NCBI GenBank assembly: GCA_963704755.1 | Contig: OY969938.1 | Location: forward strand, 3,540,001-3,572,000 | Origin: an uncultured Chloroflexia bacterium | GTDB taxonomy: Bacteria; Chloroflexota; Anaerolineae; Anaerolineales; Anaerolineaceae | Direction of reading: 5' to 3' | DNA: 32,000 bases | Shown: piece after piece, positions 1-22,509 of the stretch | How the letters are laid out: every line of letters begins with the position of its first letter | Position numbering within the stretch: the stretch's first letter is position 1 | Translations under genes and position numbers: made by a program | The notes under the pieces: generated by a model | The model's input: the letters and a program-made list of their open reading frames with translations, nothing else | The model's database searches: none | Told to the model about the DNA's origin: nothing

Positions 1-746
1 TCCTGGCCCAGGACAAAATTGCGGTCGCGGTGCTCGCGGATACTCACCTGGCCGGAGGTGTATAAACTGAGGAACTCGCTCATGGCCTGGCAGGTGCCAT
101 TTTGCGCCAGGATCGGCGCGATTTTGGCGACCAGGGCGCGTTGGCGCTCGACCGGCAGGTCCTGGTCGAGGTCGAGCCCAAACCAGGAGCCCAGCCAGGG
201 CAGGAAAGCCGGTGGGGCCAGGTTGGGGTCGAAGTAACAGTCGACCTGGTCGATTTGGCCGGAGATGGGCTTCCAGAAGCTGTCGATCAGCATCAGAAAG
301 CGGTTGGTGAGATCGTCCCGGTTATAGATCTCGGGCAAATAACGCATCGACTCGGCGGTCCGGTTGACCAGGATGCGCTGCTCCACCCGCGCGACCGGGT
401 GGCCGGCCGGGTCGAATAGGCCGGCCTGGCAGGGCAGGTAACCCTGGGGGGCATTCAAGTCCACGCGGGCCAGGACGACCAGTTCGTCCGCGGCCGGCCG
501 GCAGCCGGGTTTCCAATCCCATTCCAGAACGATCTTGTTCTCGGTCTCGCTGGCGTACACCGGGGGATGGCCGCCAGCGTCCAGGAGGTGGAAGTCGTCG
601 AGCTTGAACAGATCCGGGAGGACGAGCTGCGCATAGCCGTTAAAACCGGGGTCCTGGATTTCTAAGCGCAGGTGGAATTCCACCGTCTCGCTCGGGTAAC
701 AGGTATAGCGGCTGGCTGCAAAGGCTAAGGTTTCTGGCAATTCCAT
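1..746 (-). CDS. Baseplate wedge protein, P2 gpI-like (Afp12/Cis12 position); 3' end lies outside the window
   Basis: Absent from the ORF track because it runs off the window. My minus-strand translation from ATG 746..744 stays open down to nt 3: MELPETLAFAASRYTCYPSE...SMRYLPEIYNRDDLTNRFLMLIDSFWKPISGQIDQVDCYFDPNLAPPAFLPWLGSWFGLDLDQDLPVERQRALV... The YLPxIY..RFL..(L/F)DP..AP..FLPWL..W.G pattern is the P2 gpI / TIGR02242 phage-tail-protein signature. It starts 5 nt after the baseplate-J stop. Confidence 0.85.
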   Translation of the reverse strand, partial: MELPETLAFAASRYTCYPSETVEFHLRLEIQDPGFNGYAQLVLPDLFKLDDFHLLDAGGHPPVYASETENKIVLEWDWKPGCRPAADELVVLARVDLNAPQGYLPCQAGLFDPAGHPVARVEQRILVNRTAESMRYLPEIYNRDDLTNRFLMLIDSFWKPISGQIDQVDCYFDPNLAPPAFLPWLGSWFGLDLDQDLPVERQRALVAKIAPILAQNGTCQAMSEFLSLYTSGQVSIREHRDRNFVLGQ

Positions 747-751
747 GGCGG

Positions 752-2854
752 TTAACTGTTCTTCCCGGTCATATGGGGCATTTCGACGATGGTGACCTGG
801 TGTTCGAGCGAGCAGACTAACCCGTTTTCCGCTATCCACAGAACGCGGCCCTGTAAGGGCTCGAGCGGTTCTTCCGGGTCGATTTCGTCCACATGCAGGC
901 GCTCGTGTTCCGGGTCCACCGGGCGCGTATTGAGCTGGACGTCCACCACGTATTTCACCCCCGGCACGCGCTGGATTAGCGAGGAAATTTCGGCCAGGAA
1001 CAGCCCGCGCCCGAAAGGCCAGCCCTCCCAATCGGCAGGCAGCAGTTCGTCGTATTCGCCGCCGGGGATCGCAATCGGCGAGAGGTAGCGCTTGAGGCAG
1101 TTGATGACCCGCGCCTGGACCAGCTCGGGCGAGTTGAAATCATCCACCACGATCTCGACCTGGGCCTGGACGCCCACGTATTTGGGCTCGCGGATCTGGA
1201 TCGAGGTGGTCAGCAGGCGGTATTGGTTGAGGTAGGCTTTGGCGTCTTTGACGAAATTGGAGGGCAGCCCCAGGTTGTACAGGTCGCCGGCCATCAATGA
1301 ATCGGCCACGGACGGCACGACCAGCAGCTCGACCGTGCCCGGCTTGAGCCCGCTGGTTTCGTCCTGGGGCGAGAGGCACTTGACCCGCGCTACGCTGCCG
1401 CTGAAGTTCTTGACCAGCAACTCGTAATCCTGAACCGTCACGGCCCGTTTTTGGGCCTGGAGTTCGCGCTGGGCGCGCATCTTGATCTCTTCCAGGGTCT
1501 CCTGGTCGCGGCCGCCGCTGGCGCGGTGCAGGTTGTTGACCCGCGCGAGGTAGGCATAGGAAGCGGTCAATACCTGCAGTGAGTTTTCAGGCACGTTGCC
1601 CTGCGAGCCGCTGCCGAAGCGGTAGCGGTGGAAGCGCACCCCGCGGCCGTTCTCGGGAATGCGGCCGTACTGGCGGATGGTGCCGTCCGGCTGGCGCACG
1701 GCCGGCCCCAGTGAGACCGTCCCGTTGGCCGGGTCGAGCTTGAAATGGCGGTCGAAAAGGGTCGAATTGGCAAAGCTCTGCACACAGGTCCAGGACACGA
1801 AAACCGTCTCGTCGTTGCGGTTCTCTTCGATTTCCAGAGTCTCGCCTTCTTGCAGCGACAGCACGGGGAAGTTTTGCAGGTGGAACTCCTGGCCCGGGTC
1901 GCCGTTGCTCTGGCCGAGGTGTTCGTTATCCACCACCTGCGAATGAGTGGCCGAAATGGTCACGCCGATCGATTCGGCCGTCAGCGAGACGATGCGCGGG
2001 GAGGCGGTGTAAAAACCTTGGGTCTCATTGCGCTGTTCGTAGCGGCAGCGCAGCCAGTAGCCGGATTGTCCGTAGACGGTATCCGGTAAGGCGGAGATGG
2101 GCAGGTACAGCACCAGCGCGCCGGAGGGGTTGTTCAGGCCGCCGGTGGTGTCCTTTTCGCCGGAGAAGCTGCTGGGATGGATTTCTTTCCAGGCGCCGTT
2201 GCCGAGCGAGCACTCCCACACCAAAGGCGGGTCCTGGCGGCGGATGCCGACCGCTTCGGTGGGCTCGCAGGTAAAGTTGAGCCGCAAAATGTGCCCGCTG
2301 ATGTCCTTATCCAGGTTGAAACCGATATAGAAGGTATCCCCCTGGCGGGGCTTCTCCTGGAAAGGTTGGAAAAGCTCGATGCCCAGCCGGGGCAGGTAAT
2401 TGCGATGGTATTCGCCGTCCTTGCGCAGTTGGGTCAACTGGGGCGGAAAGACCTCTTTGGTATAGTCGGTCGAGAAGGTAATCTCCTCGGCGCTGCTGCC
2501 GCTGGCCGTGCGGACCTGCAATCCTTGCGGCACGGTGACGGTCTGCTGGCTTTCTTCATCGATGGGCAGCGAGGTGGAAAGCCAGAAGGTCAGGTCGGTG
2601 GTCGAGCTGCAAGCCGGCTGGAACTGCAAGCCCAGCAGGTCGAGGAACTTGATGTAGTTTTTCTCGGGCACGCGGTTGAGACGGTAGGTCAGCAGTTCCG
2701 TCATCCAGGCAAACAGCTCGATCAGGGTGATCCCCGGATCGCTCAGGTTGTATTCGGTCCATTCGGGACAATAATGGATGATGCGTTTGCGGGCTTCGTC
2801 CACCAAATCGCGCTGAAAACGCAGGTCATCCAGGTTAGGGCTTGGTAAGGGCAT
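752..2854 (-). CDS. Baseplate J-like protein (Afp11/Cis11 position, T4 gp6 analogue)
   Basis: 700-aa ORF. The N-terminus LPSPNLDDLRFQRDLVDEARKRI..CPEWTEYNLSDPGITLIELFAWMTELLTYRLNRVPEKNYIKFLDLLG is a typical Baseplate_J / eCIS baseplate assembly protein opening. A GAGAGGA Shine-Dalgarno lies upstream of ATG 2854. Synteny is gp25 -> J -> I. Confidence 0.9.
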   Translation of the reverse strand: MPLPSPNLDDLRFQRDLVDEARKRIIHYCPEWTEYNLSDPGITLIELFAWMTELLTYRLNRVPEKNYIKFLDLLGLQFQPACSSTTDLTFWLSTSLPIDEESQQTVTVPQGLQVRTASGSSAEEITFSTDYTKEVFPPQLTQLRKDGEYHRNYLPRLGIELFQPFQEKPRQGDTFYIGFNLDKDISGHILRLNFTCEPTEAVGIRRQDPPLVWECSLGNGAWKEIHPSSFSGEKDTTGGLNNPSGALVLYLPISALPDTVYGQSGYWLRCRYEQRNETQGFYTASPRIVSLTAESIGVTISATHSQVVDNEHLGQSNGDPGQEFHLQNFPVLSLQEGETLEIEENRNDETVFVSWTCVQSFANSTLFDRHFKLDPANGTVSLGPAVRQPDGTIRQYGRIPENGRGVRFHRYRFGSGSQGNVPENSLQVLTASYAYLARVNNLHRASGGRDQETLEEIKMRAQRELQAQKRAVTVQDYELLVKNFSGSVARVKCLSPQDETSGLKPGTVELLVVPSVADSLMAGDLYNLGLPSNFVKDAKAYLNQYRLLTTSIQIREPKYVGVQAQVEIVVDDFNSPELVQARVINCLKRYLSPIAIPGGEYDELLPADWEGWPFGRGLFLAEISSLIQRVPGVKYVVDVQLNTRPVDPEHERLHVDEIDPEEPLEPLQGRVLWIAENGLVCSLEHQVTIVEMPHMTGKNS

Positions 2855-2929
2855 ATTGGTTTCCTCTCGCTATGGATGTAGAGGGTGCATAAAAGATCTG
2901 TTTTAACGGCTCAACGTCGTTCGGTAAAT

Positions 2930-2984: not shown

Positions 2985-3006
2985 GGATTGCAGGTTAATG
3001 AACCGG

Positions 3007-3420
3007 CTACCATTCTTCTTGCGCTTCGATAAAAAATGGGTATACGATGCTGCGCTGGTCGTGCGAAGACTTGATCTGGTAGTCGATGTACACCAGCACG
3101 GCCCCATCGATATCGGGGTCGAACTCGGGCCGCACGTCCACGACCTGGATGCGCGGTTCCCAGCGCGCCAATGCTTTGGTGACCGAGGTGCGGATGCGGC
3201 CGGCCAGGACGGCGTCGCGCGGCTCGAAGACCAGGTCCTGGACCTCGCAGCCGAATTCCGGGCGCATGACCCGCTCGCCGATGCGGGTGCCCAGGATGAT
3301 GCCGATGGATTGTTCGATGTCTTTTTCGGCGCTGACCAGCTCGAAAGCACCCAGGGCGTTGACGCGGATGGGAAAATTGAGGCCGGAGCCGAGGAAGGCT
3401 GTGCGGGGGTTTTCGCTCAT
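3007..3420 (-). CDS. gp25/GPW baseplate wedge protein (Afp9/Cis9 position)
   Basis: 137 aa. IEQSIGIILGTRIGERVMRPEFGCEVQDLVFEP is the GPW_gp25 core motif (i.qSi..iL.T..GER.m.P.fG..l..l.F.p). Confidence 0.92.
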   Translation of the reverse strand: MSENPRTAFLGSGLNFPIRVNALGAFELVSAEKDIEQSIGIILGTRIGERVMRPEFGCEVQDLVFEPRDAVLAGRIRTSVTKALARWEPRIQVVDVRPEFDPDIDGAVLVYIDYQIKSSHDQRSIVYPFFIEAQEEW

Positions 3421-3431
3421 GGTTTCTCTTT

Positions 3432-3719
3432 CTAGCCGCCGATCATAACTTTCAAGGCGCCTTTTGCGACGGTGGTGGATACGGGCACGCCGGTGGCCGG
3501 GTTGGCGCCGGCGACAACGCTGGTCACCCGCGCGGCCGGCCGCCCGCCGATCAGCACAGTCAGGCTGCCCATGGTGATGGAGCCCACACAGGCGGCCCCG
3601 TTGACCAGGTCGCCCACCACCGAGGCCGGCAGGTTTTCGATCAACACGGTCGGCACGCCTGGCCCGGTGATGGTGTCACCGGTGGCGGTCATATCACTAA
3701 CGCGTGCGGCTGGAAACAT
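3432..3719 (-). CDS. PAAR-domain spike tip protein
   Basis: 95 aa with two literal PAAR motifs (MFPAARVSD, GGRPAARVTS). It is Gly/Val-rich with small beta-cone-like composition. An AGGAGAA RBS precedes ATG 3719. Confidence 0.92.
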   Translation of the reverse strand: MFPAARVSDMTATGDTITGPGVPTVLIENLPASVVGDLVNGAACVGSITMGSLTVLIGGRPAARVTSVVAGANPATGVPVSTTVAKGALKVMIGG

Positions 3720-3756: not shown

Positions 3757-5658
3757 TTAGTTAATCTTGACCAGGCCGCCCTTGATTTCTGCGATGCCCT
3801 GGCCGTTGAGGGACAGCAGCGAGTTGGCCTTTACGTCCACTTTCATGCCGGCCACCTCGACGCCGGCCATTTTGATGGACACCTGGTTGCCGCCCGGGGC
3901 CTTGAGCACCACCTCTTTTTTAGAGTCGACCGTAAAGCCTTGCTGGAGGGAAAATTGGGCATTGGCTTTGGAATCAAAGGTCATGTCGCCCTGGCTCTTG
4001 ACGATAAATTTGCCGCCGGCTTCGATCACGAAATCCTTCTTGGATTTGAAGGTGATCGTGTCCTCCTTCGAGTCGATCACAATACTGTTCTGGCCGTCCT
4101 TGTCTTGAATGATGATCTGTTCTTTGTTTTCGGTGTCGTCCAGGATGACGGCGTGGCCGCTGCGCGAGCGGATGACGCGCTGGTTGACCTTGTTGTTTTC
4201 CTGCACCTTGGCGGATGTGCCCTTGGGCGGGGTGTCCTTCTTGTTCCACAATCCGCCGATAATGAAGGGGAAGTTGATGTCGCCGTGGTCGAAGGCCACC
4301 AAGACCTCGTCGTTGATCTCGGGGGTGAAGAAGATACCGCGGTCTTTGCCGCCGCCCAGGGTGGCCAGGCGGGCCCAGTTGCTGGAAAGCTCGCCGGCCT
4401 TGCCGCCGGGGGTCAGCCAGGGAAATTTGACTTTGATGCGCCCGAGGTTGTCCGGGTCGTTGATCTCGGTCACCAGACCGATGACCGCACCGCTAACTTT
4501 TTTGCTCTCGGGGGCGCGCCCGGCGTGCAGCAGGCTGTACAGGGTGTGCGGGCTGCTGCCGGAAAGGTCGAAATTGACGGTATACTGGCCGCGGCTGATG
4601 TGATGGCGGGCTTTGGTCACCGTGTAGGTGCCGGAAAAACGCTTGCCCACGTTGGCAATTTTGACCTGGCACCCGGCCAGCACGTTGGGGTTGCCGTCGG
4701 CCAGGTAGCCGCTGGCCTGGATAAAGTTGCTCTCGCGGGCGGAGAAATCGGCCCCGGCGATGGCCTTGAGCAGGTCCACGGTAAAGGCCGGCTGGTCCAC
4801 CACCACGTCTTCGGCGGCCCCAAAGGCTTTCTTGAGCGCGGCGCTGCCGGTATCGCTGATGCCGGTCTTGGGGGCATTGCTGGTCGCGGCGGAAGTGGCC
4901 TGGCCGACGAAGGCGGTCTTTTGATCCGGGTTCCAGCCATAGGCGGCCGTTTCGGAGACCTGGTTCATCAGGGATATGCGCGGCTCGAAGCTGGTCAGGT
5001 TGTTGCCCCACTCCAGGGTAACCGGCTGCCCGGTTTTGCGGGCTGTGTCGGCCTTCTGGAAGCAGAGAGTCTTATCGTCACAATAGACCTGGTACCCCAC
5101 CTGGCAGGCGCGCGACCAGAGGTAGTCCCAATCAGACTGGTTGTACTGCATCATGTAGGGATATTTAAGACTAGAAATGCCCGACGAATCGATCTTGGAG
5201 GAAAGCCCGGCGTCCTGGATGATTTTGGAGATGATCTGCTGCTCGGAGATCGAGCCGGGCTGCCCGTCCCCGAAGGTACGGGTCTTCTTGCCGCGGGTCA
5301 GGCGGTGCGATCGGTCGTATCCGCGCACGCGGAAAAGCGGTTTGCTGTCACGGCCGTAGACCGGTTCGACCGAAGTGATTTCGCCGGCAAACAACTGCCC
5401 CTTGATCTTTTCAGCGATACCGTCCCAATTGACCTCCATTGTAATTTCGACCGGCGCCCCGATTTTAAAGGTGTCGCTGTCGGCGTATTTCATGCTGTGG
5501 GTCTTCTCGTTCTCGTCATCCAGCAGAGTGACCGAGAACATGGCCGGCAGGAACGCATCGGTATCCACCACCAGCTCGACCAGGTCGTCCAGGTCCTGGT
5601 CCTTGATGGCGGTCCCGTTTACTTTCAGGGTTACGAGTGAATCCAGCTTGGTCGGCAT
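3757..5658 (-). CDS. VgrG-like spike (phage gpD + gp5/base_V OB-fold + C-terminal beta-helix; Afp8/Cis8 position)
   Basis: 633 aa. GRIKVKFPWLTPGGKAGELSSNWARLATLGGGKDRGIFFTPEINDEVLVAFDHGDINFPFIIGGLWN is the classic Phage_base_V/VgrG OB-fold motif. The N-terminal half is gpD-like and the C-terminus has repetitive beta-helix-like K/D/V-rich strands. Confidence 0.92.
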   Translation of the reverse strand: MPTKLDSLVTLKVNGTAIKDQDLDDLVELVVDTDAFLPAMFSVTLLDDENEKTHSMKYADSDTFKIGAPVEITMEVNWDGIAEKIKGQLFAGEITSVEPVYGRDSKPLFRVRGYDRSHRLTRGKKTRTFGDGQPGSISEQQIISKIIQDAGLSSKIDSSGISSLKYPYMMQYNQSDWDYLWSRACQVGYQVYCDDKTLCFQKADTARKTGQPVTLEWGNNLTSFEPRISLMNQVSETAAYGWNPDQKTAFVGQATSAATSNAPKTGISDTGSAALKKAFGAAEDVVVDQPAFTVDLLKAIAGADFSARESNFIQASGYLADGNPNVLAGCQVKIANVGKRFSGTYTVTKARHHISRGQYTVNFDLSGSSPHTLYSLLHAGRAPESKKVSGAVIGLVTEINDPDNLGRIKVKFPWLTPGGKAGELSSNWARLATLGGGKDRGIFFTPEINDEVLVAFDHGDINFPFIIGGLWNKKDTPPKGTSAKVQENNKVNQRVIRSRSGHAVILDDTENKEQIIIQDKDGQNSIVIDSKEDTITFKSKKDFVIEAGGKFIVKSQGDMTFDSKANAQFSLQQGFTVDSKKEVVLKAPGGNQVSIKMAGVEVAGMKVDVKANSLLSLNGQGIAEIKGGLVKIN

Positions 5659-5661: not shown

Positions 5662-6360
5662 TTAATCCAGGGGCGGGATAATCAATACCTGCCCGGGTCT
5701 CAATGATTCGACGTGGTCGATATGGTTCACCTCGGCCAGGTTGCGCCAGAAGTGCGGCTGCCCGTATTCTTCGTAGGCGATCGTGTCCAGCCTTTCGCCG
5801 GACTGGACGATGCGGGTCTTGCGCGGTTCGGTGCGCGAGGTCGGGTTCTGAGGCGGCAGGGGATCGTCGTCGTGATCGTTTTGGGTAAAGGTGATGGCCG
5901 CCCGGGCGCGGATAGGGGTGCCATCGGCCAGGAAGAGCACATAGGTAATGGTCAGGCTGGTGATCACCGCCTGGAACAGCTCGAATTTGCCCCACACAAA
6001 GGCCACCGTGGGCGGCTCCAGCAGCACGTCACTCTTGCCGTGACTGCCGCCGCCCTTCAGGGTCAGGCTGAGGAGCTGGTTGGTATAGGCCCGCACGTCG
6101 TCGCCGCTGCCGGAAGTGTCGAAGGTCAGGTTGATCTGGCAGGTGGTGGGTGGGCTGCCCTGGAACTGCATAATGGCCGAGTTGAGCAGCGGCAGGGTGG
6201 TCCCGTTCCAGTTGACCTGGCGCGAGATCGACAGCTCCTGGGGGTTGAACTGGCAGGGGATGGATTGGCTCGTGCCGACCACCACGATCTTGGCTTTTTG
6301 CAGGTTATTCTGGTGCCCGAAGACCATTTCGGAGGCTTTGTTTTTCAGGGTATCAAGCAT
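5662..6360 (-). CDS. LysM-containing tube-initiator / gpX-like protein (Afp7/Cis7 position)
   Basis: 232 aa. The N-terminal tube-like fold segment is AKIVVVGTSQSIPCQFNPQELSISRQVNW. The C-terminal LysM is RIVQSGERLDTIAYEEYGQPHFWRNLAEVNHIDHVESLRPGQVLIIPP. The stop lies 3 nt before the VgrG start. Confidence 0.85.
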   Translation of the reverse strand: MLDTLKNKASEMVFGHQNNLQKAKIVVVGTSQSIPCQFNPQELSISRQVNWNGTTLPLLNSAIMQFQGSPPTTCQINLTFDTSGSGDDVRAYTNQLLSLTLKGGGSHGKSDVLLEPPTVAFVWGKFELFQAVITSLTITYVLFLADGTPIRARAAITFTQNDHDDDPLPPQNPTSRTEPRKTRIVQSGERLDTIAYEEYGQPHFWRNLAEVNHIDHVESLRPGQVLIIPPLD

Positions 6361-8899: not shown

Positions 8900-9532
8900 C
8901 TAGAACAGCGCGGATGGGCTCATGGGTACGCCGGCGATTTTGCTGAGCGAGATGGTCTCGAAAGCGATTTCGATGCTCTCGATGGCGACCTGGTTGGTAT
9001 TGTTGACGTCCAGGGTGGAAAGCGACCAGCTAATCGGATAAGCGCCTTCGAAATCCCAGTTCTTGACGATGCCGGGCCCTTTCATGCCGACCACGCTGAG
9101 AGCGCTCATCCCGGGACCGCCCTGGATGATGCTCATGTTCTGGCGTTTGACCTTGGCGTCGTATAACCCTTCGCCGAACCAGTTCCACAACTCGCTGGAG
9201 ACCGAGAGCCCGCGTTTGAGGGTAATGTGGCCGGCTTTTACCCGGCCGGGCAGGGTATGGACGTGGTCGTTCAAGCCCCCCTCGGGCAGCTCTTCGACCT
9301 GGCGGTTGACGCCCAGTCCTTCGCAGGAGGTGAACAGGCCCACCACCAGCCCGGAAATGCTGACGTAAAACAAATATGCCGGAGCGGGGTCGAAGCGGAT
9401 GCCGATCAGCTTTTCCATCTCGCGGACGAGGGTGGTGCCTAACATGCCTTTGGCCTGGTTGAGGGCCTGGCCTAATTCATCGCCCCCCGCCAGAGGCCCG
9501 GGTAGTTTGGTAGGCCCGTTGATCACACTCAT
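8900..9532 (-). CDS. Tube-like protein, T4 gp19 family with ~50-aa N-terminal extension (Afp5/Cis5-like)
   Basis: 210 aa. YLFYVSISGLVVGLFTSCEGLGVNRQVEELPEGGLNDHVHTLPGRVKAGHITLKRGLSVSSELWNWF matches the gp19/TIGR02241 tube pattern (F.v.i.g...g.F..v.Gl......e..eGG.n...h.lPG.....itLkrG......l..W). Confidence 0.85.
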   Translation of the reverse strand: MSVINGPTKLPGPLAGGDELGQALNQAKGMLGTTLVREMEKLIGIRFDPAPAYLFYVSISGLVVGLFTSCEGLGVNRQVEELPEGGLNDHVHTLPGRVKAGHITLKRGLSVSSELWNWFGEGLYDAKVKRQNMSIIQGGPGMSALSVVGMKGPGIVKNWDFEGAYPISWSLSTLDVNNTNQVAIESIEIAFETISLSKIAGVPMSPSALF

Positions 9533-14046: not shown

Positions 14047-16704
14047 TTAGAATGTGGCGTTACGGGCCAGCAGGATATTCTTGATGGCTTCTTTTCTAAC
14101 CGCCGGATCATCCGTGGTGAAGACCGTGTTCAGATCCTGGAATTCAGCCGTGGCGTGCAGCAAGCGGCTGATGGATAGCTCGGGCATCAGGTCGTGCCGG
14201 ACGGATTTGGGCGCATTACCGGAGGTCAACAAGTCGTTGTACACATCGTTGGACTCTTTGGCTACATCACTGACGCGGACGTTCAGAGTGGTTTTCTTGC
14301 CGGTCTCGTCCGTGGAATCCAGGCTCCTCATCCGGTCCTGACGGTATTCCTTGATGTTTCGGTAACCGGATTGGTCGAATTTGCGGCCGACGGTGAAATA
14401 ATTCTTGATCTTGTTGACAATCGGCTTGGCGATGCTGGCGCCCAGGTTGGTGAGCATACCGGCCAGCTTGAGTTTCGAGCCAATATCGCCGCCGATGCCA
14501 TAGCCTACCGATTGGGTCACATTCCCCAGGGTTTGAATGGAATCGTTGGTAATATCCAGCGCCTGGCCGGAAGCTTTTTTGCCCTGGGCGTCTGCCAGGG
14601 CGGCTTTGAGCCGGGGGAACACACTTTGCTCTTTGCGCCGGCCGAAATCGGTCAGGTGCCGGCTGGGGACATACTTGATATCCAGGATCTTTTTCTTGCG
14701 GCTGTTCGCCAGGCCGGCTTTGGTGCTGCGAGCTGCCAGGCTTAACCCGCTGGCCCCGGCGGCTACGGCATATTTGGCGGTACCCAGGCCGTTCCCGGCC
14801 GTGCTTTGCCCGATGCTCAACGAAGGATTATCCAGCCTGTCCTTAAAGGTGACGCCAGCCTGCCCAAAACCCAGGCCGGCGTTGGTCAGGCCTAGCAACC
14901 CGTTCAACATGTGGTAAGAGGCTTCTGTTCCCGATTGCCACATGGCGCTGCCGCTGATGCTATCGTGGAAACTGCGGGCCTGGTGCAGCCTGGCCCAGTT
15001 TGCGCCGGATTGGGTCAGCGCACCGACGCCCTGGATGGCGGTGACCGAGTTGGACATGATTCCACCGGCCAGTTCGGTGCCCATCCCGGCCCCGTTGCCG
15101 ATGTGCAGGTGGTCGGAGCCGAGCATGTTGAGATATTCCAGGCTCTTGACACCGGCACCTGCGCCGCTGATGAGCGGCAGCAGCCAGGAGTTTTGCATCA
15201 TATCGGCCGCGCCGAAGGCCCGGTCGGTGTGCGAATTGCGACCGCGGCCTTCGCCCCAGGTTGAGCCGATGAAACCGCTTTTGAGCGTGCCCTTGATGCC
15301 GGGATCCTCATAGCGAGTGGAGCCGACACCCTGGCGCTCGTACCCGCCGGTCAGGGTGACGATGTGATTAATCGATACCCCTTTGGCCGCCAGCGCATCG
15401 AAGTCACGGGCCTTGATGAGCGTAATGACCTCGTCGACGTCCTCAGGACCTAATTTTCCCAGGTTCCCGCGCCCAACATCTCGCATGACTTTCAATAAAG
15501 ATCCGGAGGGTATTTGAGCTAACGCAGCTTGTTCGGAAACGTAGGTTTTAATGCCTTCTTCGAGTTCGGGATCGGGGGCTGGAGGTCTGGTCTGGCTTGA
15601 GCCCGATTCGTTTGGGGCAGTGCGCGGTTTGAACCGTTTGGTCAGTACTGCTTGCGGGTCAAAGGCAGTATCCTTCTTGGCCCGCATGGGTGGTTCAGGC
15701 GGTTTGCGTCTGGGCGGTTGGGAAAAATCTATGGCAGGTTGGCGATGATGATGGCGCCGGGGTGGAGGCGGAGGCCGCCGTTTCGGCATGGGGATGGTGG
15801 GGTCAAAACCTTGCTCTGATTGTTGCTCTTCTGGCGGTTTACTCAAATTCAGGTCAGCCTGAATTTGAGCGACATCGACCAGGTAGAGCTTGAGCGTAGT
15901 CATGTCAAACTCGTCGATATTGCGACCTTCCATTAATATCGCTGAAATGACGGGATCTTTTTGAGCATTGCGCTTGGCCGTCCAGCGTTTGACCATTTCT
16001 TCGGTCACGCTGCCCCCAAAGGCAGCGGCAATGGCGCCGAAGTCCAGTTCGCGCTGGATGGCGCTGCCCACGGCGGAAGAGCCGGCGCTAGAAAGGCCGC
16101 CCCCACTTTGGGCGTTGCGGGCAGCCTGCTGTTCTTCGGCCGTATCCGGGTCGCCTAACTTTAGCCTGCCGGAGGGGGCTCGGCCGCCTTGTTGCACCAC
16201 GTGGGTCAATTCGTGTTTAAGGGTCTGTTGGCCGCGCTGGGATTCGGGCGCGAAGGCGCCCTGGCGGAAAAAGATGTCCGGGCCGGTGGTGAAGGCCCGC
16301 GCGCTGATCTGGCGGCTGAGGGCATCGGCGTTCTGGTCGTGGTGCAGCCGGACGCCGCTGAAATCGGTGTTGAAGCTGTGCTCCAGGTCCTCGCGTAAGG
16401 CCGGGGGCAGCGGCTGCCCCGATCCGCGTGCATTCTGGATCGCGGTAGAAATGCGATTGTTCAGGATGCCCTGTCGATCGGTAACCGGCTCACGCTGGAC
16501 GGTGTTGGAGGCCAGCCAACCATTAACGGCAATATTCCCCGCCTTCTCTTGCAGGCGGAGGATATCTGCGGGTGTGGCCGATTGGGGATCGCTAAGCGCG
16601 TTTTGTAATTCGGATTGGTTCTCTTGCGACGCGTTCTCCCCGGCTCTCTGGGGCTTTTGTTTGGTTTGGGAAACTTCTTTGGTTTTTAATTGTCCATATT
16701 TCAT
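14047..16704 (-). CDS. DUF4157 (HExxH) domain protein with Pro-rich linker and Gly-rich C-terminal region; candidate CIS effector
   Basis: 885 aa. The DUF4157 core is GQPLPPALREDLEHSFNTDFSGVRLHHDQNADALSRQISARAFTTGPDIFFRQGAF...TLKHELTHVVQQGG, with HELTH encoded at 16215-16201. The linker is PKRRPPPPPRRHHHRQPAIDFSQPPRRKPPEPP. The C-terminal ~500 aa has glycine-zipper-like stretches and no domain I recognise. It is the first gene of the operon. Confidence 0.9.
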   Translation of the reverse strand: MKYGQLKTKEVSQTKQKPQRAGENASQENQSELQNALSDPQSATPADILRLQEKAGNIAVNGWLASNTVQREPVTDRQGILNNRISTAIQNARGSGQPLPPALREDLEHSFNTDFSGVRLHHDQNADALSRQISARAFTTGPDIFFRQGAFAPESQRGQQTLKHELTHVVQQGGRAPSGRLKLGDPDTAEEQQAARNAQSGGGLSSAGSSAVGSAIQRELDFGAIAAAFGGSVTEEMVKRWTAKRNAQKDPVISAILMEGRNIDEFDMTTLKLYLVDVAQIQADLNLSKPPEEQQSEQGFDPTIPMPKRRPPPPPRRHHHRQPAIDFSQPPRRKPPEPPMRAKKDTAFDPQAVLTKRFKPRTAPNESGSSQTRPPAPDPELEEGIKTYVSEQAALAQIPSGSLLKVMRDVGRGNLGKLGPEDVDEVITLIKARDFDALAAKGVSINHIVTLTGGYERQGVGSTRYEDPGIKGTLKSGFIGSTWGEGRGRNSHTDRAFGAADMMQNSWLLPLISGAGAGVKSLEYLNMLGSDHLHIGNGAGMGTELAGGIMSNSVTAIQGVGALTQSGANWARLHQARSFHDSISGSAMWQSGTEASYHMLNGLLGLTNAGLGFGQAGVTFKDRLDNPSLSIGQSTAGNGLGTAKYAVAAGASGLSLAARSTKAGLANSRKKKILDIKYVPSRHLTDFGRRKEQSVFPRLKAALADAQGKKASGQALDITNDSIQTLGNVTQSVGYGIGGDIGSKLKLAGMLTNLGASIAKPIVNKIKNYFTVGRKFDQSGYRNIKEYRQDRMRSLDSTDETGKKTTLNVRVSDVAKESNDVYNDLLTSGNAPKSVRHDLMPELSISRLLHATAEFQDLNTVFTTDDPAVRKEAIKNILLARNATF

Positions 16705-16847: not shown

Positions 16848-16961
16848 ATCTTATGTTAAGCCACAGGCGTGCCTAAAGCGTTACGAATGCGTGTCCACCT
16901 AATCTCTGGCCAGCGAAATCACGCATGAATCTCCTTGACATAAATTTATTTCGCCAATTTA

Positions 16962-19900
16962 GTGTTAAAATATGGGGGATCTGCCGTTACCGGTTTCAAG
17001 TCCAACAAGGCCAGGGCGCTATTGGCTTACCTGGTGCTGGAACCCCAATTTGCCCATTCACGCAATTCCCTGGCCGGCCTGCTTTGGCCGGACCTGCCCA
17101 ACGAAGCGGCCAGCGCCAATTTACGCTCGGTACTGGCCAATTTACACAGGGTATTCGCAAATTACCTTGGCCCGGATATTTCGGTGCTCCGGGTGGATTA
17201 CAACGAGGTCCAGATCAACCGCGAAGAAATCCATTGCGACGTGATCGATTTCGAGGAGCGGGTCGAGCAAAACGATTTCAAGGCCGCGGCCGACCTGTAC
17301 CAGGGCCGCCTGTTGGACGGTTTCGCTTCTGGCAGTACGCCATTCGACGACTGGGTGCAGATCAAGACCGAGATTTTCCATCAAAAGGGCCTGTATGTGC
17401 TGCAAACTCTGTCCGATGAACTGCTGGACCAGGGCGACCTGGCCAACAGTATGGCCTACGCCAGGCGCGTGCTGGAATTAGAGCCCGGCCTGGAAGAGGC
17501 TCACCAGCAGATGATTTACCTGTTCGCGCTCAACGGCCAACGCAGCGCCGCCCTCTTGCAATTCGAACAGTGCAAACGCCTGCTGACCAAAGAACTTTCG
17601 GTAGCGCCGAGTGCCGAGACCCTGAAGCTGGTGGACAAAATTCGTACGGGCAGTATTTCTCAGCAAGGCGGCGTACGGGGCAAGCTCGAAGAAACGGACC
17701 GGGCAGCCCCGGAGCAGGCCAATAACGGGATCGTGGCCCGCGAGGTTGAACTGGCCTGGCTGGAAAACCGGCTCGAATCCGCGATCCAGGGGCAGGGCAA
17801 GGTGCTGTTTATCACCGGCGATTCGGGCAGCGGCAAAACCACCCTGGCAAAGGCTTTCGTTGCGCGGGCATTTACCCTCTCCGACAATATCATCGCCCTG
17901 AAAGGTACCTGTTCCATCCCCGGCGGGGTGGGCTCGCCCTACCAGCCTTTCCGCGAGATTTTGCTCAACCTGACCCGCCTGGAAGAACGTTTCTGGAACC
18001 TGGACGAATATCCCCAACAATTTGCCGGCCAGCTGATGGAAGCCCGCCGGATCGTTTTACGGTTTCTGGAACAGCAGTACCCGGATTTCAACGCGATGCT
18101 GCTTTCGCCCCCGGTGCCGCTGCCCAGCGGCACGGCGGATGGGCCGGATCCGTTTGCGGTTGCCCTCCAGACCGGCCGGCTGTTCGACCAATTTGTCCAG
18201 TTGTTTTCCAGGCTTTCTGACCATTACCCCTTGCTGTTCGTTCTGGATGATTTGCAGTGGGCCGATGAAGAATCGCTGCAACTGCTCTCTTATTTGGGCC
18301 GGCAATTGAACGGGCTGGCGGTGCTGCTGGTCGGGATTTACCGCACCGAGGAGGTCTCCGCCGGGCGGATGAACCGGCGCCATCCGATCGAGACGGTGGT
18401 GAATGAGCTCAAGCGCAATTACGGTGAGATCTGCCTGGACTTGAACAACACCGATGGCCGCAGTTTTGTCGGCGCCTACCTGAACAATTTCCCCAACCAG
18501 TTGGGGCAAAATTTTAGCGAGACGCTCTACCAGCATACCGGTGGGCACGCGCTGTTCACGGTTGAATTGATCGAGCAGCTCAAGCATTCCGGCGGCTTGG
18601 TCAAGAACGAGCGCGGATTGTGGATCGAAGGCGAAGACCTGGATTGGGACAAGCTGCCGGACCGGGTCGAATCGGTCGCAGCGGAGCGGGTCAATCGCCT
18701 GCCGCCGTTCTGGCAGACGGTGCTGAAAACGGCCAGCGTGGCGGGTGACCGCTTCATCGCCGAAGTGCTGGCGGATGTACTCAAAAAAGACGAGCGCATC
18801 ATCGTCCAGGGGTTGAGCCAGGTGGCTGCCCGGCAGCATGGCCTGGTGGTATCTTCGAGCACGCGGGTAGCCGGGGACCGGCGGTTGACCCTGTACCGCT
18901 TCCGCTACCATATATTTCAGCAATATTTATACAAAAGCCTGGACGCTGCCGAACTGGCTTTGCTGCACGGGCTGGTCGGCGATTTACTCGAGGCGCTCAC
19001 GGCCGACGGCGGCAGCGAGCCCGTCTCGCTGGCAGCCAACCTGGCCTGGCATTACGAAGAGGCCGGCAATTACAAGAAGGCTATTCATTACAACATCATG
19101 GCCGGCCGCGAAGCCAACCGCCTGGGGGCCATGAACAAGGCCGCCGGCCATTTCAATCACAGCCTGGACCTGCTCGAGAAGATCCCGGCGGATGGCGAGC
19201 ACATCAACCAGAAGCTGAGCGTGTTGAGCGAACTGGACCTGACCTACCTGGCCCTGTACGGTTGGGGCAGCCAGGAGCGCGGCGAGATCTTCGAGCGGGC
19301 CTACCGGCTATATGGCCAGCAGGGCGATATTTCGAAGCAGTTGCGCTGCCTGGGCGAGATAGCCAACAATGGCCTGGGCCGGCGGGACTACGAGAAGACC
19401 ATCGAGCGCTGCCAGAGTCTGCTGCAGCAGTCGCTGAAATTGGGCAACCCCAGCTTCACCATGCTGGCCAAGAAAATCATGGGGGAATGTTACAGCTTCA
19501 GCGGCAAATTGACCTTGGGGCGGCGCTATCTTAAGGAAATTTTGCCTTATCTGATTGAATGCCCGCAGGACCCGGCTTTTCAGTATCAGGGCGGCGATGA
19601 TCGCACATCCCGGATTTACCTGTGCTACAACCTGCTGATCTCCGGGTATCCCGACCAGTCCAGGCGCTGTTTGCAGGAGAACCTGGCCCTGCTGGAAAAG
19701 GTGCCCCAGCCTTTCGTGCGGGGTTTTTGCCTGACCCTCAATGGCATCGACCAGAGCATCATCCTGCACGATGAAGAGGCGGTCTCGAACTACGCCGGGC
19801 AGTTATATGAACTGACCCAACAGGGCGAATATACCGTTTTTCAACCTTGGGTCAGGTTTGCCGAGGTGTGGAAACACGCCAGCGCCAGTTTGGACCGGGA

Positions 19901-20387
19901 TCACCTGGATGCGTTGTGGGCCTGGGTGAACACCTACCTGCCGCACGCCAGCACGACCGGATTCCTCTTCTCGTTTTGTGCGCTGGCCGGCCTGCTAATC
20001 GACGCCGGCAATGTCGCTGAAAGCCAAAAGATCATCGACCTGATTTTGAAAAGCGTCGAGGGCCTCTCGACGAGCTCGCTCTGGCCGCTCGTTCTACGCC
20101 TGAAAGGCGAACACTGCCAGTTGAGCGGGAAACTTGATGAAGCCGAAAAGTGCTTCTTGCAATCGATCCAGGTTGCCCAGGAGCAGGAGGCCAAATTGTG
20201 GGAGTTGACCGCGGTGACCAACCTGTACAAGCTGAAACAGCAGCAAGGCAAAGAGGCGGTGGTACTGCCGATGCTTTCCCGTGTTTATGCCTGGTTTAGT
20301 GAGGGCCTGGACACGGCCCCGCTCAAGACTGCCCGGGATTTGCTGGAAGAATACGAGGCTATTCCTGGCCCTGGCGTTGCCCGTTAG
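16962..20387 (+). CDS. SARP-family (winged-helix + BTAD) / P-loop NTPase / TPR large transcriptional regulator
   Basis: 1141 aa from GTG 16962. The winged-helix and BTAD region reads TGFKSNKARALLAYLVLEP...LAGLLWPD...ANLRSVLANLHRV....DVIDFEE......AAADLYQGRLLDGF....FDDWV...LELEPGLEEAHQQMIYLFALNGQRSAALLQFEQCKRLLTKELSVAPSAET. Walker A is ITGDSGSGKTTLA and Walker B is LLFVLDDLQWADEESL. The C-terminal third is TPR-like. The first ~15 codons of the domain appear to sit in another frame (see findings). Confidence 0.9.
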   Translation: MLKYGGSAVTGFKSNKARALLAYLVLEPQFAHSRNSLAGLLWPDLPNEAASANLRSVLANLHRVFANYLGPDISVLRVDYNEVQINREEIHCDVIDFEERVEQNDFKAAADLYQGRLLDGFASGSTPFDDWVQIKTEIFHQKGLYVLQTLSDELLDQGDLANSMAYARRVLELEPGLEEAHQQMIYLFALNGQRSAALLQFEQCKRLLTKELSVAPSAETLKLVDKIRTGSISQQGGVRGKLEETDRAAPEQANNGIVAREVELAWLENRLESAIQGQGKVLFITGDSGSGKTTLAKAFVARAFTLSDNIIALKGTCSIPGGVGSPYQPFREILLNLTRLEERFWNLDEYPQQFAGQLMEARRIVLRFLEQQYPDFNAMLLSPPVPLPSGTADGPDPFAVALQTGRLFDQFVQLFSRLSDHYPLLFVLDDLQWADEESLQLLSYLGRQLNGLAVLLVGIYRTEEVSAGRMNRRHPIETVVNELKRNYGEICLDLNNTDGRSFVGAYLNNFPNQLGQNFSETLYQHTGGHALFTVELIEQLKHSGGLVKNERGLWIEGEDLDWDKLPDRVESVAAERVNRLPPFWQTVLKTASVAGDRFIAEVLADVLKKDERIIVQGLSQVAARQHGLVVSSSTRVAGDRRLTLYRFRYHIFQQYLYKSLDAAELALLHGLVGDLLEALTADGGSEPVSLAANLAWHYEEAGNYKKAIHYNIMAGREANRLGAMNKAAGHFNHSLDLLEKIPADGEHINQKLSVLSELDLTYLALYGWGSQERGEIFERAYRLYGQQGDISKQLRCLGEIANNGLGRRDYEKTIERCQSLLQQSLKLGNPSFTMLAKKIMGECYSFSGKLTLGRRYLKEILPYLIECPQDPAFQYQGGDDRTSRIYLCYNLLISGYPDQSRRCLQENLALLEKVPQPFVRGFCLTLNGIDQSIILHDEEAVSNYAGQLYELTQQGEYTVFQPWVRFAEVWKHASASLDRDHLDALWAWVNTYLPHASTTGFLFSFCALAGLLIDAGNVAESQKIIDLILKSVEGLSTSSLWPLVLRLKGEHCQLSGKLDEAEKCFLQSIQVAQEQEAKLWELTAVTNLYKLKQQQGKEAVVLPMLSRVYAWFSEGLDTAPLKTARDLLEEYEAIPGPGVAR

Positions 20388-22509
20388 GGTAAAGGTAGTC
20401 CTCTTCTTTAATAAAGCGGCCCATCTTGAGCATTTCCTGGCGGCAGGCTCGCAGCAAATGGTCCATACCCATCACGCCGCCGGATTGGGCTGCCAGAAAC
20501 GCGGCCGAGACGAGGATATTGCGGATGTTACCGCCGGCGAGGGTGTATTTGCGGGCCAGGAATTCCCAATCGATATCCGCGGCGACCGGCAGGCTTTCCG
20601 GTAGGAGCACATTCCAGATTTTGGCCCGCTGGGTTTCGTCGGGCAGGGGAAAATTGACGATGAAGTTGATCCGGCGGGTGAAGGCCTCGTCCATGTTGGC
20701 GCGCAGGTTGGTGGCCAGGATGGTCACACCCCCGTAGGTTTCCATGCGCTGCAGCAGGTAGCCAACCTCGATGTTAGCGTAACGGTCGTGGGCATCTTTC
20801 ACTTCGGAGCGCTTGCCGAAAATCGCGTCGGCCTCGTCGAAGAACAGCACGGCGTTGCTGTTCTGGGCTTCCTCGAAGATTTTCTCCAGGTTCTTTTCGG
20901 TCTCGCCGATGTATTTACTGACCACGTTGGAGAGGTTGATGCGGTACAGGTCGAGCTGGAGCTCGTTGGCGATGATCTGGGCCGCCAGGGTCTTGCCTGT
21001 GCCCGGGTCGCCGGAAAACAGGGCCGAGATGCCCGCGCTGGAAGTGAGCTTTTTCCCCAGCCCCCACTGCTCGAGCACCAGCGCGCGGTAACGCATCATC
21101 GAGATGATGTCGCTGAGGGTGTGCAGTTCTTCGTCCGGCAGGATGATGTCGTCCCAGGTGTAGCGCGGCTCGATCTTTTGGGCCAGCTCGTTGAGGTGAT
21201 GGGCGGACTGCTGGCGGGCGGCGAAAAAGAGGTCCTCGCGTGAGAAGGGCTCGCCGCTCTGGAAGGCGGCGTTTTGGACGGTAAAAACGGCGTTTTCGAT
21301 CTGGCCGCTGGTGAGCACGAACTGCCCGGCGATATCACGCAGGGTTTCGGCGGGGATCGACTGGCCGGCCAGGGCCTGTTCCCACAACCGGGCCCGTTCC
21401 AGGCTGGAGGGCAGTTCGAACTGGACTCGATAGACCAGCCGGCTGCCCTTGCGCGAGATGCGCCAGGGTGTAGGCGTACCCAGGATAAATATGCCGGCGA
21501 ACACGGCCATTTCCTCGAGGATCTCGTCCGGAATGAAGCCGTCCGCATCCAGCACCCTGTCCCAGCCGCGGATGTACAGGATCGCGTCCAACAGGCAGGC
21601 GTCGCGGATGAGCAGGCGCAAGGTCGCCAGGGTAAAGGGACTTTCGGCGCAGACCTCGTTGAGATCCACCTGCAGCAGGGGCATATTGAAGCGCTGAGCT
21701 ACCTTTTTGGCGGCCAGGAGCTGGCGGTCCAGGTCTGGCCCGACGAAGGACAGGAAAGGTCGTTTTTCGAAAATACGCTGCCAGTCCAGGGAAAAATCCT
21801 GGGCGTATGGGCTGGCGGAAATGGCCCGGTCTAACTGGTCCCATAATTCCAGGTGCAGCCAGTTTTTTTCTGGAAAATATTGGCCCACCAGCCAGGAGAT
21901 CAGGGCGGGCGAGACTTCGAAGAGCTGGCTCAGGCGCGGCTCCTGCCAGTCGGTGCCGGGATTGACCGGACGCAGCAGGTGATACTTGACCAGGGTGCCC
22001 CTGGCGCTGAATACACCCAGCCAGGTCAGGCGGTTGAACTCGGGCCGGTCCTCGACCAGCAGATCGAGGATCAGGTTGACGCCGGCCTGCTTTTTGGTGA
22101 CGTCGTTTTGCAGGTAACCGAAAATGCGTTCGTAGCGCAGGTCCAGGGTGGGCAGCAGGCAGATCAGGAAAGCGTGGTATTCGAAATCCGACAGGCCGAA
22201 GTATTCCCGCAGCAGGGGCAGGCGCAGTTTAACATTCCTGGACTGGGCCTGCACTTCGATCTGGCGGCAGGCGGCCTGGGCATTCTCGATGAAGGCCGCC
22301 GCGGACGAATTGTCGAGCCCTTTGGCGACCACCGGTGCCTGGCTTAATGCCTGCGCCTCTTGCGGAGAAATGTACAGGCCGCGGAAGCGGTCGTTGGCTT
22401 CCTGGCCGGTTTGCAAAGCCGCATCCAGGGCGCGTTTGACCAGCAGGTCAATTTGCGAGATCTCAATGGAGAGATAACGCAGGTTCAGGTCTTCGGGTAT
22501 AGTATCCAT
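20359..22509 (-). CDS. AAA+ ATPase, Afp15/Cis15-type CIS assembly ATPase
   Basis: 716 aa, with a long N-terminal domain and a single C-terminal AAA+ module. Walker A is FSGDPGTGKTLAA and Walker B is VLFFDEADAIFGKR. The second region of homology is VTILATNLRANMDEAFTRRINF. Its 3' end overlaps the convergent SARP gene by 29 nt. Confidence 0.92.
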   Translation of the reverse strand: MDTIPEDLNLRYLSIEISQIDLLVKRALDAALQTGQEANDRFRGLYISPQEAQALSQAPVVAKGLDNSSAAAFIENAQAACRQIEVQAQSRNVKLRLPLLREYFGLSDFEYHAFLICLLPTLDLRYERIFGYLQNDVTKKQAGVNLILDLLVEDRPEFNRLTWLGVFSARGTLVKYHLLRPVNPGTDWQEPRLSQLFEVSPALISWLVGQYFPEKNWLHLELWDQLDRAISASPYAQDFSLDWQRIFEKRPFLSFVGPDLDRQLLAAKKVAQRFNMPLLQVDLNEVCAESPFTLATLRLLIRDACLLDAILYIRGWDRVLDADGFIPDEILEEMAVFAGIFILGTPTPWRISRKGSRLVYRVQFELPSSLERARLWEQALAGQSIPAETLRDIAGQFVLTSGQIENAVFTVQNAAFQSGEPFSREDLFFAARQQSAHHLNELAQKIEPRYTWDDIILPDEELHTLSDIISMMRYRALVLEQWGLGKKLTSSAGISALFSGDPGTGKTLAAQIIANELQLDLYRINLSNVVSKYIGETEKNLEKIFEEAQNSNAVLFFDEADAIFGKRSEVKDAHDRYANIEVGYLLQRMETYGGVTILATNLRANMDEAFTRRINFIVNFPLPDETQRAKIWNVLLPESLPVAADIDWEFLARKYTLAGGNIRNILVSAAFLAAQSGGVMGMDHLLRACRQEMLKMGRFIKEEDYLYPNGQRQGQE

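Follow-up and report, generated by a model that had tools for sequence, protein, structure and literature searches.

The closest described relatives of the locus treated here are the contractile injection systems (CISs) of Streptomyces, whose particles are cytoplasmic and mediate stress-induced death (PMC10066040, PMC10020575, PMC12237407), and those of Roseiflexus and Thermogemmatispora (both Chloroflexota) and of Deinococcota, which occur as free intracellular particles (PMC12998442). These systems belong to class IId, which has no conventional fibre, no 'typical' tape measure and no ClpV (PMC10066040; for the tape measure also PMC12237407). A tape-measure gene is stated to be absent from the S. 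coelicolor cluster, yet all of its particles measure 268 nm; within class IId, particle lengths of 238 nm (C. chliarophilus) and 365 nm (D. aquatilis) are also on record. Here we describe a CIS locus that fills positions 1-22509 of a 32,000-nt stretch of contig OY969938.1 from an uncultured Anaerolineae bacterium (this whole stretch being hereafter the window, to which positions refer unless another locus is named), and compare it with ~120 related loci (numbered L073, L116 and so on). We consider it likely that this is a chromosomal class IId CIS of the Streptomyces/Roseiflexus lineage, working in the manner proposed below. Since class IId is already known in Chloroflexota, the Anaerolineae locus is, judged by its sequence, a further member of the class there.

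The assignment to class IId is based on the sheath and the baseplate J protein, both of which are closest to the Streptomyces CIS structures. Among solved structures, the sheath matched the Streptomyces CIS sheaths 8BKY, 8BL4, 9GTP and 9GTS over its full length (E 1e-162), followed by 9ezm (1e-117), the thylakoid-anchored CIS (tCIS) of Anabaena (1e-56), the PVC, Afp and AlgoCIS sheaths (~1e-52, the similarity being confined to the C-terminal half), pyocin (1e-17) and T4 gp18 (1e-9). The best solved relative of the baseplate J protein is the S. coelicolor CIS baseplate chain 9gtp_1K (E 9e-113), as compared to E 2e-6 for the 1231-aa protein of the Anabaena tCIS. A check of the matched structure entries led back to the publications on the Streptomyces CIS. 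In terms of identity, the sheath is ~50% identical to that of the Streptomyces CIS, and also ~50% identical to its nearest relatives within the set of Chloroflexota and Deinococcota systems mentioned above (Chloroflexia metagenome-assembled genomes, MAGs; PMC12998442). The nearest sheath genes from genomes come from Anaerolinea, Anaerolineales and Anaerolineaceae MAGs (71-74%), and the metagenomic contigs L116 and L119 are closer still (79-80%). Copies of the regulator and of the DUF4157 protein with 100% identity are found on a 4.87-Mb NCBI/ENA contig. The top phage sheath, from Bacillus phage BCD7, is 32% identical over its full length, and the sheath also matches PHROG 23 (E 3e-77). Similar loci are syntenic in dozens of genomes across several phyla.

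The CIS genes were confirmed by listing the open reading frames (ORFs) and by profile searches (Pfam, NCBIfam, PHROG). The structural genes all lie on the minus strand, and the locus comprises the following features:

1-746, minus strand: gpI-like baseplate wedge protein (Cis12 equivalent); Tail_P2_I E 3e-9
752-2854, minus strand: baseplate J-like wedge protein (Cis11), 700 aa; Baseplate_J E 1e-14
3007-3420, minus strand: gp25-like sheath initiator (Cis9); GPW_gp25 E 2e-24
3432-3719, minus strand: PAAR spike tip (Cis10); PAAR_motif E 2e-15
3757-5658, minus strand: VgrG-like spike (Cis8); Phage_base_V E 4e-24, Phage_GPD E 4e-6 (under the Pfam cut-off)
5662-6360, minus strand: tube initiator (Cis7) with a weak C-terminal LysM; CIS_tube E 2e-26, LysM E 3e-3, PRK11198 LysM E 2e-4
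6381-8897, minus strand: Pro/Ala-rich protein at the tape-measure position, 838 aa; 19.6% Pro, no family match
8900-9532, minus strand: gp19-type tube adaptor (Cis1b / CIS5-like); Phage_T4_gp19 E 2e-29, CIS5_fam E 7e-23 (under the NCBIfam cut-off)
9529-9705, minus strand: micro-ORF, 58 aa; hidden Markov model (HMM) of Pro-rich C-termini E 0.0067
9717-9896, minus strand: DUF6760 ORF without start codon, in frame -1 relative to the chaperone gene; chaperone fusion matches PF20546 with E 1.5e-11
9877-9884, minus strand: G8 run, candidate -1 slippery site at the chaperone gene end (CTG GGG GGG GAA TAA)
9872-10240, minus strand: tail assembly chaperone, 122 aa; PHROG 508 E 9e-8
10252-10731, minus strand: extra gp19-type tube paralogue; Phage_T4_gp19 E 1e-20
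10791-11234, minus strand: main inner tube protein (Cis1a); Phage_T4_gp19 E 3e-36
11250-12890, minus strand: single-piece sheath (Cis2), 546 aa; Phage_sheath_1 and Phage_sheath_1C
13205-14029, minus strand: cap / tail terminator (Cis16, DUF4255); Pvc16_N E 3e-31
14047-16704, minus strand: DUF4157 protein, putative cargo, 885 aa, HELTH motif; eCIS_core E 2e-28
16853-16895, minus strand: candidate SARP box and promoter of the structural operon; sole match in the window
16925-20387, plus strand: SARP/STAND regulator (putative winged helix-turn-helix (wHTH) with BTAD, AAA_16 P-loop, TPR); BTAD E 5e-16, AAA_16 E 3e-23, AAA_22, TPR_12 E 4e-7
20359-22509, minus strand: Afp15-type AAA+ ATPase (Cis15); WHD E 2e-27, AAA E 1e-28

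An initial annotation, made from the sequence alone, had listed the structural genes in minus-strand order, from the DUF4157 protein to the gpI-like protein, and read the locus as a CIS of the extracellular type (eCIS) rather than as a prophage tail or a type VI secretion system (T6SS). The profile searches bear this out: all genes it named are present, the matches to the eCIS core all lie above the Pfam cut-off except for the weak LysM and Phage_GPD, and cap, Afp15-like ATPase and DUF4157 accompany a sheath that is far closer to Streptomyces CIS than to the best phage sheath. Also as described there, the sheath is in one piece, and profile searches detected no head (capsid), portal, terminase, lysis or integrase gene in the 32 kb. 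Homologues of TssJ/L/M/K or ClpV were not found among the window proteins. No capsid, portal, terminase or integrase gene was found in the 10-kb flanks of the relatives examined either, and tRNA and Rfam scans of the window gave no match. The features that the annotation had singled out as unusual are all present, and are mostly norms of the lineage or published associations. The SARP/STAND gene does separate the ATPase gene from the structural operon on the opposite strand, but BTAD is a published eCIS 'shell' domain (PMC8213781) and the position is conserved in the sublineage. Three gp19-type proteins do accompany a LysM initiator, but two of them (Cis1a, Cis1b) and Cis7 are standard for class IId and only the third copy is extra; this copy (10252-10731) is a separate gene in only some relatives. 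A Pro-rich protein does occupy the tape-measure position, as it does across phyla in 65 of 65 loci, and the absence of an Afp13-type fibre gene, correct for the window, is a published class IId trait. Against this background, the embedded SARP/STAND gene, conserved together with its box, stands out, as do the additional tube paralogue and the putative cargo's orphan domain. The annotation had put well the question of whether the particle is released or acts inside the cell. For class IId, action within the cell has been shown or observed (PMC10066040, PMC12998442). It had missed the frameshift signal of the chaperone, the DUF6760 ORF, a common [VI]QR motif and the regulator box, which are treated below.

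The genes are tightly packed, as had been described, with gaps mostly of 2-20 nt or 4-nt overlaps and four larger gaps (cap-sheath 314 nt, gp25-baseplate J 152 nt, tube1-tube2 59 nt, VgrG-PAAR 37 nt). The cap-sheath gap (12891-13204, minus strand) spans ~80-150 nt in relatives and contains a terminator-like hairpin at 13038-13053 here; the sheath and tube genes may in this way be expressed separately and at a higher level. A scan for consensus promoters and terminators returned no more sites than expected by chance. The cap gene itself is called as two ORFs (161 and 110 aa) in L120 (6406-7231) and as one of 274 aa elsewhere, probably because of a frameshift or an assembly error. The gpI-like protein is truncated by the left window edge, beyond which its C-terminal 70-80 residues lie (full-length relatives have 311-336 aa).

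The locus has in common with the CISs of S. coelicolor and S. venezuelae (8BKY, 8BL4, 9GTP, 9GTS) a single sheath, the Cis1a/Cis1b pair, a Cis7 LysM initiator, VgrG, gp25, J and I, the DUF4255 cap and the AAA+ ATPase, a chaperone followed by DUF6760 in the -1 frame, and a Pro/Ala-rich protein that contains [VI]QR motifs and shares the C-terminal helix; Afp13 fibre, typical Afp14 tape measure and ClpV are absent there, and within the window here. It differs, besides belonging to another phylum, in having an extra gp19 paralogue and a SARP/STAND regulator, in the location of the ATPase, DUF4157 and cap genes directly upstream of the sheath gene, in the absence of a CisA homologue from the window, and in a cargo C-terminal domain unrelated to the proposed Streptomyces effectors. 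The Roseiflexus, Thermogemmatispora and Deinococcota systems (PMC12998442) are alike in being class IId, including members in Chloroflexota, and in having no close cisA homologue. Their particles were seen free in the cytoplasm, with an intracellular action proposed, and their hosts are thermophilic or extremophilic Chloroflexia, Ktedonobacteria and Deinococcota rather than Anaerolineae. The released eCISs (Afp, PVC, AlgoCIS) possess homologous cap, ATPase, tube, sheath and baseplate proteins, but differ by having two or three sheath proteins (or one that is longer), Afp13 fibres, a helical Afp14 tape measure and toxin genes at the 3' end.

The chaperone gene is the most conserved small gene of the locus (48-86% identity across phyla). 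Between it and the micro-ORF lies the DUF6760 ORF, which was first noticed as 52-aa gene calls in L120 and L121. Its copy in the window (KGYPLEQINEEVAYIAYHFHWDLDTIYNLPHQNRREWVRQIANINKRIGQA) contains no ATG, GTG or TTG and is open in the -1 frame across the last chaperone codons. We surveyed this frame relation in 82 non-identical loci, which come from Chloroflexota, Actinomycetota (with Streptomyces among them), Acidobacteriota, Verrucomicrobiota and other groups, and found DUF6760 in the -1 frame relative to the chaperone in every one of them (82/82). A start codon for DUF6760 is absent within 30 nt of the junction in 37 of these loci and absent altogether in 30, and the final 30 nt of the chaperone gene contain a run of at least five G in 79. 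A perfect G GGG GGG heptamer is present in 29 of the 82 loci and GGGAAAA in one. In L073 (a Dormiibacterota MAG), the 3' end of the chaperone gene (~3290-3308) reads CTGGGAAAAGCGTGA in place of the G-run; this contains the classical slippery heptamer G GGA AAA, which fits selection for slippage and not for Gly-Gly codons. A sequencing error as the cause of the missing start codon was considered and rejected, as the frame relation is identical in 82 independent loci.

Altogether, the junction looks like a programmed -1 frameshift of the phage G/GT type, by which the chaperone would be produced with and without the DUF6760 extension, the proposed equivalent of phage T / E'. The resemblance to lambda G/GT and P2 E/E+E' extends to the small chaperone gene upstream of the tape-measure position (with PHROG 508 homology), the overlapping -1 ORF without a start codon, and, where the upstream gene ends, a slippery homopolymeric heptamer. 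The differences are that the extension consists here of DUF6760, which has only weak phage matches, and that in the window the micro-ORF and the tube adaptor gene separate the chaperone region from the tape-measure-like gene. In the open-access text of the literature, including the main Streptomyces CIS papers, we found no relevant mention of DUF6760, of a CIS chaperone frameshift or of the [VI]QR motif.

The 838-aa Pro-rich protein has no match in Pfam, NCBIfam, PHROG or the PDB, and with its 19.6% Pro it is not of the helical, coiled-coil type of the tape-measure families, to none of which it could be assigned. A large Pro/Ala-rich gene is nevertheless found in all 65 loci whose region is readable (436-1630 aa, 8-25% Pro). 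In the Streptomyces-type arrangement it comes directly after the chaperone gene and is followed by Cis1b and Cis7, whereas in the Anaerolineae-type arrangement, that of the window, the order is chaperone, micro-ORF, Cis1b, Pro-rich gene and Cis7. The proteins are mostly unalignable among loci, without convincing alignment of their N-termini, apart from a shared C-terminal helix (approximately LDxLAxxVYxxhKRxLxhExER; LDLDQIASQVYPILLRKLEIEKER in the window copy, which matches an HMM of 61 relatives with E 1.5e-8). When this helix HMM was run against 21,800 stop-to-stop ORFs, it returned the big proteins and ~38 small ORFs, nearly all of which are the micro-ORFs found at that position (E 0.0067 for the window copy, down to 1e-7 for others). 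We conclude that the micro-ORF, 46% identical between the window and L116, is a genuine gene, the product of which reproduces the docking end of the large protein.

A second shared trait of the Pro-rich proteins is the motif [VI]QR. The window protein contains nine copies versus 0.41 expected, a number reached in none of 2000 shuffles (0/2000), and the Pro-rich proteins of the 65 loci contain 447 versus 19 expected, as compared to one occurrence in all the other structural proteins of the window together. The DUF4157 proteins of these loci also contain the motif, namely in their disordered N-termini and frequently in the form of VQRxxEEEEELQxK repeats. Among the window protein and its three closest homologues, VQREP is invariant immediately ahead of the DUF4157 domain. 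The nearest described parallel to the Pro-rich protein comes from the tape-measure-related Streptomyces CIS effectors Tme and Sle1 (PMC11126660, PMC13277306), likewise large, mostly disordered proteins encoded just upstream of the hub and spike genes and linked physically or genetically to DUF4157. Tme, from another CIS group, differs in carrying DUF4157, transmembrane helices and a nuclease domain, while the Pro-rich protein has neither DUF4157 nor a hydrophobic segment nor a recognisable enzymatic domain. Comparison of its C-terminus, of the chaperone and of the DUF4157 protein with solved structures gave nothing meaningful.

Because of its position after a G/GT-type chaperone, its conserved, hub-proximal end and its large variation in length, we regard the Pro-rich protein as a candidate ruler, a candidate luminal cargo, or both. 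On this basis we tentatively suggest that class IId may possess an overlooked phage-like module for length determination and loading, consisting of a chaperone in two forms, the Pro-rich ruler or luminal protein, the helix mini-protein (in the Anaerolineae type) and [VI]QR as a loading or processing signal; we hold this with less than even confidence.

The DUF4157 protein begins with a disordered N-terminus that includes the VQREP motif; this is followed by the DUF4157 domain (HELTH) and, after a Pro-rich linker, by an orphan C-terminal domain of 505 aa. The latter has three homologues in an index of 5.8 billion proteins and eight among 1.84 billion representatives, all of them fused to DUF4157 and all from the same sublineage. 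In AlgoCIS, cargo proteins consist of a disordered N-terminal loading sequence, DUF4157 and a variable C-terminus, and are loaded by an Afp15-like ATPase (preprint 10.64898/2026.05.27.728243). By analogy with this architecture, that of the AlgoCIS proteins Cgo1/2, the DUF4157 protein is the putative cargo of the CIS, and the ATPase (78% identical to its L116 copy) its putative loader. An AlphaFold model of the C-terminal domain from a four-sequence alignment shows mostly long helices but is unreliable (pLDDT 48.6). A pore-forming or membrane-active role of this domain was considered and dropped, as it contains no hydrophobic segment.

The SARP/STAND gene lies on the plus strand between the ATPase and DUF4157 genes and is convergent with the former, the two 3' ends overlapping by 29 nt. 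In most Anaerolineae relatives, ATPase, DUF4157, cap and sheath genes are consecutive on one strand with no regulator in between, but the layout of the window (ATPase, large SARP/STAND gene on the opposite strand, DUF4157) recurs in L116, L119, L120 and L121. The regulators of these five loci are only 36-43% identical, and the embedded arrangement is therefore old and maintained. A homologue with 35% identity in L122 does not adjoin a CIS, and a small SARP gene is found upstream of the ATPase gene in three other loci, which come from other classes and phyla. The regulator has the domain order of the AfsR-type large SARPs of actinomycetes (putative wHTH with BTAD, P-loop NTPase, TPR) and is likewise divergent from its presumed target operon, but the similarity to AfsR is weak (NF053617 E 4e-6, far under the cut-off), and AfsR-type proteins control biosynthetic clusters whereas the predicted target here is a CIS. 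The ORF as read begins with GTG at 16962; the homologues in L116, L120 and L121 point instead to ATG 16925, the frame of which encodes MNLLDINLFRQFSVK, a match to the conserved first strand of these homologues. The two frames are separated by an apparent 1-nt frameshift in an A4 run at 16967-16970, near the 5' end of the gene, which would mean that the gene was inactivated recently, that it uses a start farther downstream, or that the long-read assembly is in error here. Even with the N-terminus repaired, Trans_reg_C matched it with E 0.2 at best.

An alignment of the regulator/DUF4157 intergenic regions revealed a conserved block on the operon strand, composed of two to three direct hexamers G[ATG][CA]ACG with 11-nt spacing, 9 nt, and TAnnAT. 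In the window it reads GACACG-N5-GTAACG-N5-GGCACG (16868-16895), followed after 9 nt by TAACAT (16853-16858), and is the only match in the 32 kb (0.18 expected). Box and -10 element recur at the equivalent place in L116, L119, L120 and L121. SARP-activated promoters contain direct repeats one helical turn (11 bp) apart that abut a -10 element. As the box fits this architecture, it is predicted to be the site through which the regulator activates the structural operon; the 11-bp repeats next to the -10 element are shared with AfsR-type promoters, but the actinomycete SARP boxes are TCGAGXX-type and the one here is GnCACG. A relaxed search for the box found no second site upstream of the ATPase or sheath genes. 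An earlier candidate site for the regulator, TTAATTTC in two copies at 16788/16799, was rejected, as it is not conserved in relatives, unlike the GnCACG box. A repeat of the same kind (GCCACG, GCCACG, GACACG, 11-nt spacing) is present in L122 (9890-9930, minus strand), in the divergent intergenic region of a tandem SARP/STAND pair not associated with a CIS, and suggests that the large Anaerolineae SARP/STAND family (578 matches, E<=1e-20) may recognise GnCACG-type boxes generally.

We propose that the system works as follows. The SARP/STAND regulator would bind the three direct hexamers and so activate the synthesis of a single long transcript that begins with the DUF4157 gene and extends to the baseplate genes; a signal would presumably gate this activation through the ATPase and TPR parts of the regulator. 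The baseplate would assemble from PAAR, VgrG, Cis7, Cis1b, gp25, J and I. The chaperone would be made in two forms, a short one and one extended by DUF6760 via a -1 slip on the G-run, and may, as in phage G/GT, hold the Pro-rich protein. The C-terminal helix of the latter would dock in the hub, and during polymerisation of tube and sheath as far as the cap the protein may serve as ruler, as luminal cargo or as both. The AAA+ ATPase would load the DUF4157 protein via its disordered N-terminus. Contraction would then expel spike, tube contents and cargo, by analogy with the lineage most likely under stress and from inside the cell.

What lies beyond the left end of the window can be approached through the relatives. 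In those with the best match (L081/L082, baseplate J 68-69% identical), the genes after gpI encode a conserved DUF4159 protein, then a protein of 360-490 aa whose N-terminus is FHA-like, a membrane protein, and finally a very large protein with an N-terminal FHA and Ig-like (Big_3_5) domains (L082 10826-16377). This module is located at 3680-7938 in L081, at 7401-16377 in L082, and at ~13100-19900 in L086-L088 and L094; other relatives have a 530-620-aa membrane protein in its place. No Afp13-type fibre gene follows gpI in the relatives examined. The DUF4159, FHA and membrane protein genes could constitute a membrane-anchoring or phospho-threonine control module for the CIS.

At the other end, the window contains an MFS transporter, a sortase, a C25-type peptidase and a DUF11 surface protein. 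The MFS gene (22585-23922, minus strand) lies just upstream of the ATPase gene, and is preceded by TTGACA-18-TAGAAT (23956-23985), the best sigma-70-like promoter in the region scanned; the MFS gene may therefore share a transcript with the ATPase gene. A 72% identical homologue in L106 (16243-17580) is situated at the opposite end of the CIS locus, 3.4 kb after gpI, and the MFS gene may indicate where the chromosome borders on an island whose orientation is inverted from one genome to another. The remaining genes (24237-31980, minus strand) form a surface cluster unrelated to the CIS, tightly packed with 4-nt overlaps. It encodes the DUF11 protein (1384 aa, nine repeats), the Peptidase_C25-like protein (950 aa) and the sortase (247 aa), which contains a Pro/Thr-rich linker.

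The site of action is where the reading as an intracellular class IId system has its most serious competitor. The particle might instead be a released CIS of the Afp/PVC/AlgoCIS kind, set free by lysis, equipped with fibres encoded to the left of the window, and injecting the DUF4157 protein as a toxin. We judge this unlikely, but worth keeping in mind: DUF4157 is a typical marker of eCIS toxins (PMC8213781, PMC11297309), a PAAR tip is present, the large Ig-like-domain proteins encoded after the baseplate genes in relatives (L082, Big_3_5) could be binding proteins, and the Roseiflexus study leaves an eCIS-like role open (PMC12998442). However, it is DUF4159 and FHA/membrane proteins, and not an Afp13-type fibre, that follow gpI in relatives, the characterised members of the lineage are cytoplasmic and contract on lysis rather than staying extended, and the window contains no lysis cassette. 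The same FHA and membrane proteins recall the Fha/threonine-phosphorylation control of some T6SSs, and could be taken as a sign of a membrane-anchored variant (T6SS-iv-like) or of an anchored CIS of the thylakoid type. This is very improbable given the single-piece sheath, the lack of TssJ/L/M/K and ClpV homologues among the window proteins, the 700-aa baseplate J protein without the long extensions of its Anabaena tCIS counterpart, and the cap and Afp15-type ATPase of eCIS type. To a defective prophage tail or an R-type tailocin we give even less credence. Homologies to phages are certainly there, from the generic matches of sheath and chaperone (PHROG 23, PHROG 508) and the full-length similarity to the BCD7 sheath to the phage-style chaperone with its frameshift signal, but a DUF4255 cap, DUF4157 and an Afp15-type ATPase are all present, head, portal, terminase, integrase and lysis genes as well as a tRNA attachment site are missing from the 32 kb, the sheath matches solved CIS structures with E 1e-162 as opposed to 1e-17 for pyocin and 1e-9 for T4, and the synteny is stable in dozens of genomes from several phyla.

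Several points weigh against the class IId system as we propose it. With regard to the site of action, intracellular particles are known for Streptomyces, Roseiflexus and members of Deinococcota and for no Anaerolineae; a fibre or membrane adaptor may lie left of nt 1; and the window holds no homologue of CisA. With regard to assembly, the Pro-rich protein is not helical, matches no tape-measure family and varies from 436 to 1630 aa among related loci, and for about half of the loci frameshifting has an alternative in coupled re-initiation, because there a GTG or ATG of DUF6760 overlaps the stop codon of the chaperone gene. An activity of the putative cargo's C-terminal domain gains no support from a model with such a low pLDDT. 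The regulator, finally, may be inactive or mis-sequenced, given the apparent frameshift at its 5' end, and its box could serve autoregulation, because it is located 27-59 nt upstream of the regulator ATG 16925 and 160-190 nt upstream of the DUF4157 start.

The locus extends the Streptomyces-type CIS to the Anaerolineae, filamentous and mostly uncultured bacteria that are common in sludge and sediments, and its occurrence there fits the idea of a lineage serving multicellular, filamentous lifestyles. More useful than the locus alone are the lineage-wide signals, i.e., the chaperone frameshift, the docking helix of the micro-ORF and the [VI]QR motif. For three features of assembly and regulation that emerged from the comparison of the ~120 loci, we found no description in the open-access text of the literature. 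If true, a conserved frameshifting chaperone together with an atypical ruler would account for the assembly of fixed-length particles (268 nm in S. coelicolor) in systems that have no recognisable tape measure. The motif common to the ruler candidate and the cargo is a concrete, mutable candidate for a loading signal, which is of relevance to engineered delivery devices, and a regulator with a predicted box opens the way to asking which signal turns the system on.

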